Assembly: GCA_016840465.1 (NCBI GenBank)
Contig: JAEOSH010000006.1
Location: 2,886 to 66,885 of the forward strand
Source: Candidatus Baldrarchaeum yapensis
GTDB taxonomy: Archaea; Asgardarchaeota; Baldrarchaeia; Baldrarchaeales; Baldrarchaeaceae
Direction: 5' to 3'
Length of the DNA: 64,000 nt
Every line of letters begins with the position of its first letter. Within the stretch, counting starts at the first letter, position 1. The notes beneath the pieces are model-generated. The model saw only the letters and a list, made by a program, of their open reading frames with translations, had not been told where the DNA came from and ran no database searches. A program made the position numbers and the translations under genes. Positions 37,241 through 61,896 of this stretch are shown in pieces.

Positions 37241-37284
37241 ATTTCATAAACTCATAAGTTTATAAACTTATGAGTTTATGAAAT
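37241..37284. promoter_or_regulatory. 44-bp perfect palindrome centred on a TTTATAAA TATA-like box, about 15 nt upstream of the ATPase-nuclease gene
   Basis: Read directly: ATTTCATAAACTCATAAGTTTA|TAAACTTATGAGTTTATGAAAT. The central 8 nt are TTTATAAA. Confidence 0.5.
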
Positions 37285-37298
37285 CTTGGTGTTAAACG

Positions 37299-38885
37299 TT
37301 GTCCTACCTGTTACCAGTGACGGGCGAGGACTTCTTCGATCGGGAGCGAGAACTGGAGATCTTGGAAAGTGGGAAGAATATAGCACTTATAGGACCTAGA
37401 AAGTCGGGAAAGACATCTATAATATTTGAATTTGTACGAAGACATCCCGAGAAGAGAATTGCTTACGTGTATGTTCTTTTCCAGGAAGACATCAATAGCT
37501 TAATTTCAAGAATGGCAAGATCGGTGCTAATGGTAATACTAAGAGTAAGGGATGAAGTGCCGGCGCTTGATGATCTGATATCCGCAGCTATGGACAAGGT
37601 GCCGGAAATATCGGCTCTCCTATATAATCTTATGCGACATATCAGGAAGCAAAGACATGAGGAGGCTCTCGAGGCATTAGCTAATGTTTGCGAGAAAACC
37701 GGAACCGTAATCGCCATAGATGAGTTTCAGAACGTTTTTCAATTAGAGAAGTTCGTAGATATTCTGCGCATGATCTTACTCAAGTATAGAAAGGTACAAT
37801 GGATAATAACTGGATCCAGCATAGGAATCATGAAGGAACTGCTCATGGAACCATCATCTCCCCTTTTTGGGCACTTTGAGGTCGTATGGGTCGGCGCATT
37901 TGATATGCCCACGGCTTCAGAGTTTCTGGAGTTCTTACTAAGGCGTACCCAATTTTCGATGCCACCCGATGTGAAACAATACATTCTTGCAATTTCAGGA
38001 GGCTTCCCATTCTACATCTCAATCATTGTCTCAAAGTCCGTAGAGAAAGCCAAAACCAAACGAAAAGGGAAAATAGTCCCTTGGAGCGATGTCATGGAAA
38101 CCTTAGAGGAAGAATTGTGCCATCCGGAGGGCACTCTGTACAGGCATTTTATAGAAACTCTAGAGAAGGGTATGAAACGAAGAAATGTGGGGAAATATAT
38201 AGACGTACTTTACTGGATCGCAAAAGGAGCGTCAGATTTAACGACCATATCCAAAAACACAGGATTCAGCCCGCAGCACTGTCTGAAAATACTCAGATTT
38301 CTCGAAAAAAGCATGTTAATAGAGAGAGTGGGGGATAGTTACTTTCTGAAGGACCCTCTCATGGACATATGGCTCAAGAGAATATATGAGTTGATGAGCC
38401 GAGAATACTCCCCGGTAAGGGACTTTACACAAATAAAACTGATGTTAAAAGAGTATTTGGACGAATTGAGAAAGCAGATTTCGATAGGTGCGGAGGCAAG
38501 GATCAGAGAATTGCTTAGAGCATTCGATGGAAGAAGGAAGATACCAATAGCTGGAGAAATTGTAAGGACCCCAACATTTCAAATGGTGTCGAGGATTACA
38601 TGGAATGGTAATGAAATAGATGTTCTCGCAATCGGGTCCGAGGTGTGGGTTTTAGAAGTAAAAACCGGGTCTGTGAAATATGAAGATCTGAAAACCTTCG
38701 CTAGGAAAATAGATGACGCGATAAAATCCGGAGTTATTAAGCGTGTTGACAGAAGAATACTCGCATGCCTCGGTGATATTAAAGAGAATCTGGTAACAGA
38801 AGCAGATAAGCTCGGTATCAAGATTTGGAGAAAAGAGGAGATTAACAAAGCCATGCGGATTTTCGGTTATTATCCATTCCTGTAA
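37299..38885 (+). CDS. Arch-ATPase (Orc/Cdc6-related AAA+) fused to a C-terminal DUF234-type PD-(D/E)xK nuclease-like domain
   Basis: Walker A 'LIGPRKSGKTSI', Walker B 'VIAIDEFQ', and a C-terminal 'NEIDVLAIGSEVWVLEVKTG' (D…ExK). It has a non-ATG (TTG/GTG) start and is paralogous to the 60475-61896 gene. Confidence 0.75.
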   Translation: MSYLLPVTGEDFFDRERELEILESGKNIALIGPRKSGKTSIIFEFVRRHPEKRIAYVYVLFQEDINSLISRMARSVLMVILRVRDEVPALDDLISAAMDKVPEISALLYNLMRHIRKQRHEEALEALANVCEKTGTVIAIDEFQNVFQLEKFVDILRMILLKYRKVQWIITGSSIGIMKELLMEPSSPLFGHFEVVWVGAFDMPTASEFLEFLLRRTQFSMPPDVKQYILAISGGFPFYISIIVSKSVEKAKTKRKGKIVPWSDVMETLEEELCHPEGTLYRHFIETLEKGMKRRNVGKYIDVLYWIAKGASDLTTISKNTGFSPQHCLKILRFLEKSMLIERVGDSYFLKDPLMDIWLKRIYELMSREYSPVRDFTQIKLMLKEYLDELRKQISIGAEARIRELLRAFDGRRKIPIAGEIVRTPTFQMVSRITWNGNEIDVLAIGSEVWVLEVKTGSVKYEDLKTFARKIDDAIKSGVIKRVDRRILACLGDIKENLVTEADKLGIKIWRKEEINKAMRIFGYYPFL

Positions 38886-59187: not shown

Positions 59188-60123
59188 TTAGGTGGGAGAA
59201 GGAAGAATAACTCGCATGCCAACGGTGCTCAGCACAAATTTTTCCCTAAGTTCCGTTGAAATTCTACTTATGGCCTTAAAGCCGGTGCAATGCATCGGTA
59301 TTATGTAAGTTGGATCTATCTCCCTGAACATCTCGATGGTCTTATTAATCGTAGTATCTGGAGCCCCGCTCAGATGGAATCCTCCTATCACCGCATACAC
59401 CTTTTTAGTTCCCGTAATTTTTTGCGCGTGCAATATCGTATTTATTATGCCAGCGTGCGCGCATCCCGATATTACAACCAATCCCTCCTTCCTTAGGCGT
59501 ATCACTAAAGATTGGTCGTCAAGTATTTCATCCCTTACAAGTTTATCGTCCTTTATCGTATACATCACTGGAAATCCTTTCTCAAAATCGGTGGTCCGTT
59601 CAACTTCCCCTGTTGTTGTTGTTCCGGGTGCAAGTTGTACGGGGGACTTTGTTATCATCAATTTTGCCCCCAAGGACTTCAACTTCTCGGGGTCGAGTAT
59701 CATGGGTCCTCGGGTATTCCCGTTCGGAAGTATTACGTACTTTGGCAAGAAAACATCCGGATGCGCAACAAAGGTGACGGGCTTACCTATTTTCTTAAGC
59801 ACATCCTCTAACGCGCCATAGTGATCTAAATGTCCATGACTGAGAAAGAAGAAGTCGACCTCTCTGAAGTTAACGCCTAACTTCTCAGCATTATATGGGA
59901 CCCCTACTCTCGTGAGCCCTGCGTCCATGAGTATAGTTCGACATCTATCCCCCCTGAACACCTTAATTAGTAGTGAAAGTCCGTGCTCTGCAATCAACTG
60001 TTCTGAGAGCTCAGCCACGTATCTTTTCACTGGCGGAACGCTTGGAACCAGAACATCCGCGTAGTTATCCATTAAAACAAGTATTTCTACCCTATCGGCA
60101 TCTCCCAGCAACAACACCTTCAC
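59188..60123 (-). CDS. MBL-fold metallo-hydrolase
   Basis: 'FFLSHGHLDHYGAL' (HxHxDH) with downstream His/Asp ligands 'IPMHCTGF'. Confidence 0.7.
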   Translation of the reverse strand: MKVLLLGDADRVEILVLMDNYADVLVPSVPPVKRYVAELSEQLIAEHGLSLLIKVFRGDRCRTILMDAGLTRVGVPYNAEKLGVNFREVDFFFLSHGHLDHYGALEDVLKKIGKPVTFVAHPDVFLPKYVILPNGNTRGPMILDPEKLKSLGAKLMITKSPVQLAPGTTTTGEVERTTDFEKGFPVMYTIKDDKLVRDEILDDQSLVIRLRKEGLVVISGCAHAGIINTILHAQKITGTKKVYAVIGGFHLSGAPDTTINKTIEMFREIDPTYIIPMHCTGFKAISRISTELREKFVLSTVGMRVILPSPT

Positions 60124-60415
60124 CTCCTCTCAAGAAGTCAATTATTTTTGAGCATATGCTCAATTTAAAATCTCCACCCAGATGTCGCTGGTATTCAAAC
60201 TCCTGAGTCGCACATTACAAAGAATGTGTAATGCTCGGACAATCATGCACCAACAGATGTGACTCGCAATAATGAGAGCAACATGCTTAAGAATAGAATT
60301 AAAAATCGTTTTTTAAGCAATTTGACGTAAAAATTGTACGCTAAGACCGATTAAAAGGTCTGATGATTTTTGACGCAATCCGCCGCAAACAACGCATCAT
60401 TAAGAAAATGCATTT

Positions 60416-60463
60416 ATCTACTTATGAGTAGTCTACTATAAAGTAGACTACTCATAAGTAGAT
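60416..60463. promoter_or_regulatory. 48-bp inverted repeat (22-nt perfect arms, 4-nt spacer) centred on TATAAA, 11 nt upstream of the second ATPase-nuclease gene
   Basis: Read directly: ATCTACTTATGAGTAGTCTACT-ATAA-AGTAGACTACTCATAAGTAGAT. The centre reads CTATAAAG, and 'AAGGGGA' lies between the repeat and the ATG. Confidence 0.5.
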
Positions 60464-60474
60464 AAGGGGATGAC

Positions 60475-61896
60475 ATGCAGAATCACGCTTTTATCAATAG
60501 AGAGAAGGAACTCTCCGTTCTGCATGAGCGGTTTAAAACATCCCGTGCTGAGCTCATAGTGGTGTACGGAAGAAGACGCGTGGGGAAGACCACAATACTA
60601 AAGGAGTTCCTGAAAAGAGTAGGTGGAGTGTATTTCCTCGGCAGACAAGAATCGGAATTAGATCAGTTGCGCAGGTTTTCCTCGATACTTGCAAGATACT
60701 TCGGAGACAAGTTCTTAGAAAAGAGTCCATTTACGAACTGGGATGGACTTTTTGAGTACCTTGCCAGCAAGGCTGAGAATCAACGAGTAGTGGTGATATT
60801 CGATGAGTTTCCGTATATGGTTTCTAGTTGCCCTAAACTGCCATCAATATTGCAGGACTTCTGGGATAACAGATTATCATATACGAAGATCTTCATAGTA
60901 CTTTGCGGCTCCAGCATCGGAATGATGGAGGAGATAATCGGTGGTAAAAGCCCACTTTACGGTAGAAGAACCGGACAACTACGTATAGGTCCCCTTAAAT
61001 TCTCTGATGTCCGGAAGTTTTTTCCTAAGTACACATTTAGAGACCAAATAACTGTATATGCCGTTTTGGGCGGGACTCCCGCATATCTCGTCCAATTTGA
61101 TACTCAAAAGAATATCATGTCAAACATCGAGGAGAACGTACTAAGGACAGATGCATTCCTTTATCAGGACCCTCTCTTCGTGCTCAGGGAAGAAATAGAA
61201 GAACCGCGGTTCTATTTCTCAATACTTAAAGCAATAGCCTATGGCGCAACGCGTCTGTCAGACATAATTAATCTCACAGGCCTAGGGAAGGGATTGGTTT
61301 CAAAATATATTGCAACACTAATAGACCTAGATCTAATTAAGCGTGAAGTTCCTGTCACAGAGAAACACCCCGAAAAGTCCAGAAAGGGAATTTACAAAAT
61401 AAAAGACCACTTTTTCAGATTCTGGTTCCGTTTCATATATCCTCACATGGAAGAAATTGAACTTGGCGACACAAAGTTCATAATCGACACTATAGAGCGC
61501 AACCTCCAAGAGTTCGTAGCTCCTGTGTTTGAAGAAATCTGCATGGAGGCCCTTAAGATTCTTAACTTAAAAAATAAACTGCCAACTCGTTTTTTACAGT
61601 TCGGAAAATGGTGGAATAGAGGAGAAGAGATAGACATAGTTGCATTAGATCCTCGCACAAAATGCATGCTGGTCGCAGAATGTAAATGGAGCACAAAACC
61701 AGTTTCTGCATCAGAACTCGGTAGGCTTGTTGAAAAAGCAGAACTTGTGGAGTGGATGAACGACACTAGGAAAACCTTCTATGCATACTTTTCCTCGGGC
61801 GGCTTTACAAAATCAGCATATAGTGTTGCACAAGAATACAACATCTTTACATTTGATCTAGAAAAACTGGAGAAAATTTTCAGTAATAAAGTTTAG
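60475..61896 (+). CDS. Arch-ATPase (AAA+) fused to a C-terminal DUF234-type PD-(D/E)xK nuclease-like domain (paralog of 37299-38885)
   Basis: Walker A 'VVYGRRRVGKTTIL', Walker B 'VVIFDEFPY', and a C-terminal 'EEIDIVALDPRTKCMLVAECKWS' (D…ExK). Confidence 0.75.
   Translation: MQNHAFINREKELSVLHERFKTSRAELIVVYGRRRVGKTTILKEFLKRVGGVYFLGRQESELDQLRRFSSILARYFGDKFLEKSPFTNWDGLFEYLASKAENQRVVVIFDEFPYMVSSCPKLPSILQDFWDNRLSYTKIFIVLCGSSIGMMEEIIGGKSPLYGRRTGQLRIGPLKFSDVRKFFPKYTFRDQITVYAVLGGTPAYLVQFDTQKNIMSNIEENVLRTDAFLYQDPLFVLREEIEEPRFYFSILKAIAYGATRLSDIINLTGLGKGLVSKYIATLIDLDLIKREVPVTEKHPEKSRKGIYKIKDHFFRFWFRFIYPHMEEIELGDTKFIIDTIERNLQEFVAPVFEEICMEALKILNLKNKLPTRFLQFGKWWNRGEEIDIVALDPRTKCMLVAECKWSTKPVSASELGRLVEKAELVEWMNDTRKTFYAYFSSGGFTKSAYSVAQEYNIFTFDLEKLEKIFSNKV

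Follow-up and report, generated by a model that had tools for sequence, protein, structure and literature searches.

A gene for a 473-aa ATPase-nuclease of the ATPase_2-DUF234 family begins at position 60475 of a 64,000-nt stretch of contig JAEOSH010000006.1 from the archaeon Candidatus Baldrarchaeum yapensis; this whole stretch, which we analysed, is called the window below. Just before the start codon lies a 52-bp perfect palindrome with a predicted TATA box at its centre. What is such an element doing on the promoter of this gene, and which protein would read it? The family corresponds to PDC-S27, which is among the most abundant archaeal candidate defence genes and is without a known function, ligand or DNA target. 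Our analysis revealed that the palindrome consists of three short dyads at a strict 15-bp pitch and that arrays of the same design precede homologous genes in archaea and bacteria. We consider it probable that this is an operator array embedded in the promoter, with the gene's own product as its likeliest reader and negative autoregulation as its role.

Three dyads on one promoter

The first-pass annotation of this DNA had described a TATA-centred perfect inverted repeat with 22-nt arms upstream of the ATPase-nuclease gene. The letters at 60416-60463 match its transcription exactly, and the repeat turned out to be longer than noted: the arms (60414-60437 and 60442-60465) comprise 24 nt and are 100% complementary around a 4-nt loop. 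At this length it stops 9 nt before the ATG, as against 11 nt for the version with 22-nt arms. Divided into units, the element reads TTATC-TACT-TATG-AGTA-GTC-TACT-ATAA-AGTA-GAC-TACT-CATA-AGTA-GATAA. It thus holds three 10-bp dyads ACT-N4-AGT (N4, any four nucleotides) that start at 60420, 60435 and 60450, exactly 15 bp apart (units A, B and C, Table 1). The TATAAA in the middle is located 33-38 nt 5' of the ATG. In archaea, the distance from TATA box to transcription start is about 26 nt, and the B recognition element (BRE) precedes the TATA box; here, transcription would start at about 60464-60468.

Over the whole window, we counted inverted repeats with perfect arms of at least 9 nt and a loop of at most 10 nt. 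Seven were found. The 24-nt arms of the element described above (element 2) are the longest, followed by the 22-nt arms of a second palindrome (element 1), and all others have arms of 10 nt or less. When folded as single-stranded DNA, element 2 reaches -23.3 kcal/mol (z = -12) and element 1 reaches -18.0 kcal/mol (z = -11). The palindrome of element 2 is the same in three independent assemblies of the organism (Candidatus Baldrarchaeia metagenome-assembled genome, MAG), and it is not a fold-back assembly artefact, since its two flanks are different unique sequences.

Element 1 lies 46 nt past the stop codon of its upstream gene and stops 14 nt before the TTG start, at 37299, of a paralogue of the ATPase-nuclease gene. 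The two proteins share 23% identity over about 458 aa (E = 8e-11) in an alignment that reaches into the region of the winged helix and the EID...nuclease, and the 37299 protein has an ATPase_2 match and a weak C-terminal match of PD-(D/E)xK type. A profile search of the window returned no family member besides these two genes, and each of the two palindromes precedes one of them.

As the first-pass annotation had seen, the two elements differ in overall sequence and share an inverted pair of the 10-mer ACTYATRAGT, in the orientations that it gave. In element 1 the pair is formed by ACTCATAAGT (37250-37259) and ACTTATGAGT (37266-37275) at a pitch of 16 bp. The four copies in the window (37250, 37266, 60420 and 60450) all lie in the two elements, compared to 0.28 copies expected; none of 100 shuffles of the window reached this number, and the 10-mer is absent from 7.9 kb of extra flank beyond the window (L001). 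A word of 10 nt or more common to two palindromes of these arm compositions has a probability of P≈0.007. The 10-mer had been taken for a half-site common to the private dyad elements of the two paralogues. Both dyad elements are there, but the 10-mer is a complete dyad unit of a tandem array.

Just one further public contig, from a Logan assembly (L007), includes the 37299 paralogue, and it starts inside the 44-nt palindrome, at window position 37255. This contig end is probably an assembler break at a perfect palindrome.

Arrays upstream of homologous genes

We next asked whether homologous genes carry similar elements. A homologue scan with one genome per species gave 80 archaeal and bacterial loci at 34-54% protein identity. 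The forward test used 78 loci with at least 100 nt of upstream sequence, including the 59%-identical nearest homologue (P0002/L004). Within 100 nt upstream, ACT-N4-AGT was found 30 times in 8.0 kb (20 loci), as opposed to 36 times in 465 kb elsewhere, a 48-fold enrichment. Dinucleotide shuffles of the upstream DNA gave 2.4 matches on average and at most 7. No comparable enrichment was seen with the other spacers (N0-N3, N5-N8), each of which had 0-5 upstream matches, so that it is specific to N4. The first-pass annotation had named a lack of enrichment at other family members as part of what would speak against its proposal, and enrichment is what we found.

The pitch is conserved as well. Two units 15-16 bp apart occur in 9 loci and in none of 500 shuffles, and the self-similarity of the upstream 90 nt has a single peak at a shift of 15 (0.371 versus 0.288 in the control, z = 11.9). 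Perfect inverted-repeat arms of at least 8 nt are present in 29.5% of the upstream regions; the figure is 4.6% for shuffles (Mann-Whitney, P about 5e-17) and 3.3% for random windows (P about 8e-23). The longest upstream inverted repeat is very often of the TAyACT...AGTrTA type and located 10-50 nt before the start codon. The symmetrised consensus of the unit is tATACT-YwwR-AGTATa, of which ACTYATRAGT is an ordinary instance. One upstream site, TAGTCTACTCTAAAGTAGACTA in L012, almost equals the core TAGTCTACTATAAAGTAGACTA of the window element and is almost identical to its unit B, ACTATAAAGT. The nearest homologue has two ACT-N4-AGT units 15 bp apart and no long palindrome, and most homologues likewise show a 15-bp tandem of short dyads without long-range symmetry.

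When the loci were sorted by protein similarity, the unit sequence was seen to shift with the clade (TAtACT-N4-AGTAtA; ATTATAAT-type; TAATCrYGATTA; TAGTCAATCGTACTTGACTA; TTAGnCTAA), whereas position and pitch stayed constant. The arrays are interwoven with the promoter elements of either domain. In bacterial homologues, the unit linker AGTATAATACT holds the TATAAT -10 box, and the Selenomonas felix homologue (L053) has at about 2948-2988 a 41-bp perfect palindrome, ATCTTTCTAATCACGATTATAATAATCGTGATTAGAAAGAT, centred on TATAAT, which by its layout corresponds, in a bacterium, to the window's TATA-centred palindrome. Archaeal homologues have a TATA box of the TTTAAATA type at about 25-35 nt 5' of the start codon, and their units occupy the space between TATA box and start codon, the TATA-to-start zone in which unit C is found, or span the start codon. 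The latter is the case in two Methanoregula MAGs (L014 and L019), where an exact ACTTATGAGT lies over the start codon with the ATG inside N4, an arrangement that suggests leaderless transcripts with a start site inside the operator unit. Tandem palindromes, with the units TGAATATATTCA and TCATATATGA, also stand between -10 box and ribosome-binding site in five bacterial genes distantly homologous to the 37299 paralogue (about 30% identity).

These comparisons indicate selection for the array, which persists at protein divergences that would have scrambled neutral upstream DNA. They support the conserved control logic that the first-pass annotation had proposed for an archaeal family, but the family is not specifically archaeal, as most of the 78 loci are bacterial. 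The array design accompanies the gene in archaea and bacteria; gene, promoter and operator therefore appear to travel as a self-contained cassette.

In the reverse direction, we scanned metagenomes with the pattern ATACT-N4-AGTAT-N2-TACT-N4-AGTAT and obtained at least 120 arrays. Among the matches listed, 27 arrays were too near a contig end to judge and 93 had room on both sides. Directly 5' of a family gene stood 61 of these 93 (57 with a called gene, 4 with an ORF (open reading frame) call that overran the array). The exact ACTYATRAGT was contained in 13 of the 61, from unrelated metagenomes; together with the copies over the start codons of L014 and L019, this shows that the 10-mer is not private to the Baldrarchaeum genes. 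The same pattern gave 18 matches in viral contigs, none of them with a family gene and six of them upstream of ORFs of 562-588 aa. Judged from these counts, the linkage of the motif to the family is high and not exclusive.

Which protein would read the array

The 473-aa protein matches ATPase_2 (PF01637, 7.6e-34) and DUF234 (PF03008, 5.3e-31), both over the gathering cut-offs, and the hidden Markov model of the PADLOC candidate PDC-S27 covers residues 5-451 (2.2e-58). An AlphaFold2 model built on 34 homologues (mean confidence score, pLDDT, of 94) showed the organization into the four parts given in Table 1. The predicted winged helix consists of helices 244-255, 261-268 and 272-284, the last being the recognition helix, and wing strands 288-291 and 306-309. 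For this region, homologues show Pfam matches to HTH_5, HTH_IclR and MarR_2, and the protein itself has weak Sso10a and MsvR matches at residues 247-312. E385, D387, E402 and K404 are invariant in the 34 homologues and lie on the adjacent model strands 384-392 and 397-404. Among solved structures, 2FNA and 2QEN, two uncharacterised ATPases from archaea, are nearest, followed by archaeal Orc1/Cdc6 and eukaryotic ORC subunits, STAND/NLR proteins, RuvB and MuB. DUF234 was placed in the PD-(D/E)XK superfamily in 2012 (PMC3424549). PDC-S27 is an abundant, unvalidated candidate defence gene, reportedly present in 71% of Halobacteria genomes and in about 3,500 archaeal and 4,600 bacterial copies (PMC12988326; bioRxiv 10.1101/2025.11.08.687337).

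According to this model, the central winged helix is the candidate reader of the operator units. The first-pass annotation had pointed to the protein's own winged helix-turn-helix as part of a family-specific control; the core of this idea is supported, except that the domain is central and not C-terminal. Autoregulation is the most economical solution, because the array is co-inherited only with the gene that encodes the winged helix. In the mechanism that we propose, the three (t)ACT-N4-AGT(a) sites at 15-bp pitch would overlie the BRE-proximal region, the TATA box and the TATA-to-start zone. Winged-helix dimers would sit on neighbouring dyads and might cooperate via the AAA+ module. The bound array would keep out TBP/TFB and RNA polymerase, so that negative autoregulation would hold a potentially toxic ATPase-nuclease at a low level. 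Repression is the expected sign, because archaeal units cover the TATA box and TATA-to-start zone and bacterial ones the -10/+1 zone. What we infer here is which protein binds, that it does so cooperatively and that it represses instead of activating. Cross-regulation between the 60475 gene and its paralogue is possible, because the latter uses two units of the same sequence.

Within the recognition helix, some residues vary with the operator class, which is suggestive and compatible with autoregulation. Of 19 class-A proteins, 18 have K at residue 277, a column that varies in the other classes. At position 281, class A has V, T or I, and classes C and D have mostly N. K277 and T281 are among the columns that best discriminate the operator class.

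Several observations weigh against autoregulation by the gene product. The excess of specificity-determining columns in the winged helix is modest (7 of the top 30, compared to about 4.4 expected) and phylogenetically confounded. The perfect symmetry of both elements extends to N4 and linker positions that are presumably uncontacted, which exceeds what a simple operator needs and is rare among the homologues. A 15-bp pitch corresponds to about 1.4 helical turns, so that adjacent dyads face almost opposite sides of B-DNA, an uncommon arrangement for simple cooperative dimers. Among the metagenome matches listed, 32 of the 93 arrays precede no family gene; they stand before AAA_14+DUF4143 (3), GntR/UTRA (3) and sigma-54 (2) genes and before single genes for UvrC, fumarase and others. 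Similar arrays also precede viral portal-type ORFs. Finally, the two paralogues in the window share the 10-mer despite quite different recognition-helix sequences, so that a shared third-party factor fits as well as cross-binding.

An alternative is an operator whose reader is a distinct host factor, such as a small winged helix-turn-helix or GntR-type protein encoded elsewhere, with both paralogues and maybe further genes as its regulon. The 10-mer common to both paralogues and the class-A arrays 5' of GntR/UTRA, sigma-54, UvrC and other genes are in line with such a factor. Still, we regard it as unlikely, as the motif tracks the gene across archaea and bacteria with a sequence that varies with the clade of the encoded protein, and the window has the motif pair at its two family genes and nowhere else. 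No protein family was common to more than 2 of 45 loci whose neighbouring genes we compared; without a conserved neighbour gene, a host factor would need repeated co-transfer or re-evolution. For the same reason, a separate adjacent regulator gene was rejected, as was a WYL-type defence regulator of the BrxR/CapW kind. In the window, the neighbours of the 60475 gene encode an MBL-fold hydrolase (59188-60123, minus strand, divergent) and ProRS.

A more speculative variant keeps the gene product as reader and makes the array more than a repressor site: on it, the ATPase-nuclease would assemble into an AAA+ oligomer of the Orc/DnaA kind and act as a sentinel tethered to DNA. The family would then read 15-bp-pitch dyad arrays as a molecular pattern, and identical arrays in phage genomes, such as those before portal genes in six viral contigs, or titration of the protein off its own promoter, would trigger ATP-dependent nuclease activity. 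In this reading, an operator scaffold that doubles as TATA box in archaea and as -10 box in bacteria would explain easy transfer across domains. We consider this improbable; if true, a single DNA motif would link the detection of foreign DNA to the protein's control of its own dose.

The palindrome might serve chiefly through the structure of its DNA (cruciform or hairpin), or be a site of recombination or insertion by which a single-gene cassette is mobilised. Such a role, in place of a protein operator, would account for arms that are symmetric even in N4 and linkers, for the strong hairpin energies, for the frequent transfer of the family into unrelated neighbourhoods and for the Logan contig that ends inside element 1. 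It seems quite improbable, however, given that most homologues lack long-range symmetry and that the array always overlaps promoter elements directly before the start codon. Moreover, no second copy or matching repeat was found at the other end of the gene, nor flanking direct repeats in the window. Terminal inverted repeats of a miniature inverted-repeat transposable element or an insertion sequence were rejected as well: each palindrome is unique in the window, the two differ, and no other copies were found.

The units could also be recognition sites of the nuclease activity, the protein sensing or cutting array DNA (e.g. of phages) with the promoter copy as tether or self site. This would suit the intact PD-(D/E)xK motif, the class-A-style arrays in six viral contigs and the listing of the family as a candidate defence gene (PMC12988326). 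Cutting its own promoter would be deleterious, however, and the viral arrays are without a linked family gene, making this reading distinctly improbable; in addition, one PDC-S27 representative gave no protection against T4, T5 and T7 in E. coli (PMC12881386).

An RNA-level element (a hairpin in the 5' untranslated region or a terminator) would be stable if transcribed, and element 1 does lie shortly past the stop of its upstream gene, but this is very improbable: with the TATA box in the loop, transcription of the gene itself would begin at the right arm or past it, the gene 5' of element 2 is divergent and neither palindrome is followed by a T-run; a chance feature of AT-rich promoter DNA, which we grade together with it, is excluded by the shuffles. 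An intrinsic terminator or structured RNA was also rejected on account of an A+T-rich stem that is followed by GGGGATGAC, and an Rfam scan of the whole window gave no matches. An Orc1/Cdc6-ORB (origin recognition box) origin was discarded too: the protein is a member of the ATPase_2 family of 2FNA and 2QEN, its match to ORC chains is by fold alone (12-16% identity), and the arrays are at the promoter in the 78 loci, including the bacterial ones.

Known systems and further arrays

Taken as an autoregulatory array, the element resembles the DnaA boxes in the dnaA promoter and the Orc1/Cdc6-ORB system, in which an AAA+ protein fused to a (winged) helix-turn-helix meets arrays of short sites at its own gene. 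Orc1/Cdc6 structures are the nearest functionally characterised fold neighbours of the ATPase-nuclease. The latter is nevertheless not an orthologue (14-15% identity) and adds a C-terminal PD-(D/E)xK nuclease; the sites at its gene, dyads of 10 bp, keep a strict 15-bp pitch, and we saw neither an AT-rich unwinding element nor an origin context.

Archaeal repressors that occlude promoters (MDR1, LrpA, Phr, and TrmB with the Thermococcales glycolytic motif) have palindromic operators over the TATA box or start site, and autoregulation is common among them. What the present array has in common with them is a dyad site over or after the TATA box, together with a mechanism that is expected to shut out TBP/TFB or RNA polymerase. 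Those repressors are small dedicated factors with one or two sites, whereas here a 473-aa ATPase-nuclease faces three units in a 52-bp palindrome, and the design extends to bacteria. BrxR/CapW regulators of the WYL type bind inverted repeats upstream of anti-phage defence operons. The likeness lies in a candidate defence gene under proposed tight negative control via an inverted repeat in its promoter; in contrast, a separate regulator gene and a WYL domain are both lacking here, and the DNA-binding domain is fused inside the effector. By the tests made, the arrangement belongs to none of these three groups. The STAND/AAA+ regulators MalT and IniR likewise couple a structurally neighbouring ATPase to a DNA-binding domain that controls promoters, and the AAA+ domain of IniR has been likened to SSO1545/2FNA (PMC5760070). 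They differ in being activators of other operons with sensor repeats and a LuxR-type helix-turn-helix, as opposed to a central winged helix, a nuclease domain and sites at the own promoter.

An autoregulatory operator is thus of a known kind, while a family-wide, cross-domain array of 15-bp pitch for an ATPase-nuclease appears to be undescribed: we found no description of upstream operator arrays for the ATPase_2-DUF234 family in the literature searched, whose coverage was incomplete, so that an earlier description is possible. The array is a first concrete candidate DNA ligand for the winged helix of this family, and it offers a simple recipe for predicting the cognate site of any member. One operator scaffold would be used with both archaeal TATA and bacterial -10 promoter elements. 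The predicted tight negative autoregulation could also explain why heterologous tests with foreign promoters or hosts are uninformative.

Table 1. Positions of the two palindromes, their units and the associated genes and domains in the window
Feature	Position	Strand	Basis
Element 1, perfect 44-nt palindrome centred on TTTATAAA (37259-37266)	37241-37284		inverted-repeat search
Paralogous 528-aa ATPase_2 gene	37299-38885	+	23% identity to the 60475 gene
Element 2, three putative operator units with symmetric linkers and flanks, across the whole predicted core promoter	60414-60465		inverted repeat, hairpin energy
Putative operator unit A, ACTTATGAGT (tACT-TATG-AGTa), 5' of the TATA box in the BRE-proximal zone	60420-60429		fits the family unit consensus
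Putative operator unit B, ACTATAAAGT; N4 and flanks make the TATA box	60435-60444		15 bp from A and from C
Predicted TATA box TATAAA, palindrome centre	60437-60442	+	sequence
Putative operator unit C, ACTCATAAGT, reverse complement of unit A, between TATA box and predicted start site	60450-60459		sequence
GGGG, tentatively a Shine-Dalgarno-like run, 5 nt 5' of the ATG	60466-60469	+	sequence only
Gene for the 473-aa ATPase_2, winged-helix and DUF234 (PD-(D/E)xK) protein	60475-61896	+	Pfam, PADLOC, AlphaFold2
AAA+ domain	residues 1-243		AlphaFold2 model
Predicted winged helix-turn-helix, residues 244-311	61204-61407	+	model secondary structure
Two long helices	residues 312-365		AlphaFold2 model
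PD-(D/E)xK nuclease-like α/β domain, residues about 367-473	61573-61893	+	invariant residues, model

Two further repeats of the window were noted. The 350-nt divergent intergenic region between the MBL-fold hydrolase gene and the ATPase-nuclease gene contains, from 60124 to the palindrome (60413), no recognised element except a weak repeat, the 73% overlapping repeat at 60389-60432. Within the coding region of the 60475 gene lies AGAAATAGAAGAACCGCGGTTCTATTTCT (61191-61219), which with arms of 10 nt is third in length among the window's perfect inverted repeats.

Arrays at other genes were of several kinds. A two-unit class-A array, tgtatACTcgtaAGTatactACTcatgAGTataca, stands 84-135 nt 5' of AAA_14+DUF4143 genes (L223 2100-2128, L242 1826-1854, L264 1637-1665), and this ATPase family may use the same operator logic. 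Class-A-like arrays were also found 95-126 nt 5' of GntR/UTRA genes (L165, L181, L257) and 21-58 nt 5' of sigma-54 genes (L188, L253); these could be either look-alike operators of other factors (with GTATAC cores) or extra targets of family proteins.

In viruses, six contigs (L133 2921-2964; L134, L143, L267, L275, L280) carry class-A-style arrays, tatACTccaaAGTagtatACTctaaAGTataatACTctaaAGTatata, 23-130 nt 5' of an ORF of 562-588 aa, with no ATPase_2/DUF234 gene in those loci. In L133, the ORF 3' of the array is the portal gene, right after the large terminase gene. A viral scan for three units (ACT-N4-AGT x3) proved non-specific, with mostly generic 15-bp tandem repeats and GTTACT-N4-AGTAAC arrays, and no family gene was near any of its matches. 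The GTTACT-N4-AGTAAC arrays are intergenic, occur in about 25 viral contigs (L093-L146; e.g. L093 3336-3377, L114 4470-4511, L111 3763-3804) and have a 15-bp pitch and an architecture like the L040 and L028 operators. In L111, L115, L118 and L137, they are located 13-21 nt from a gene for a tyrosine integrase of 425-427 aa.

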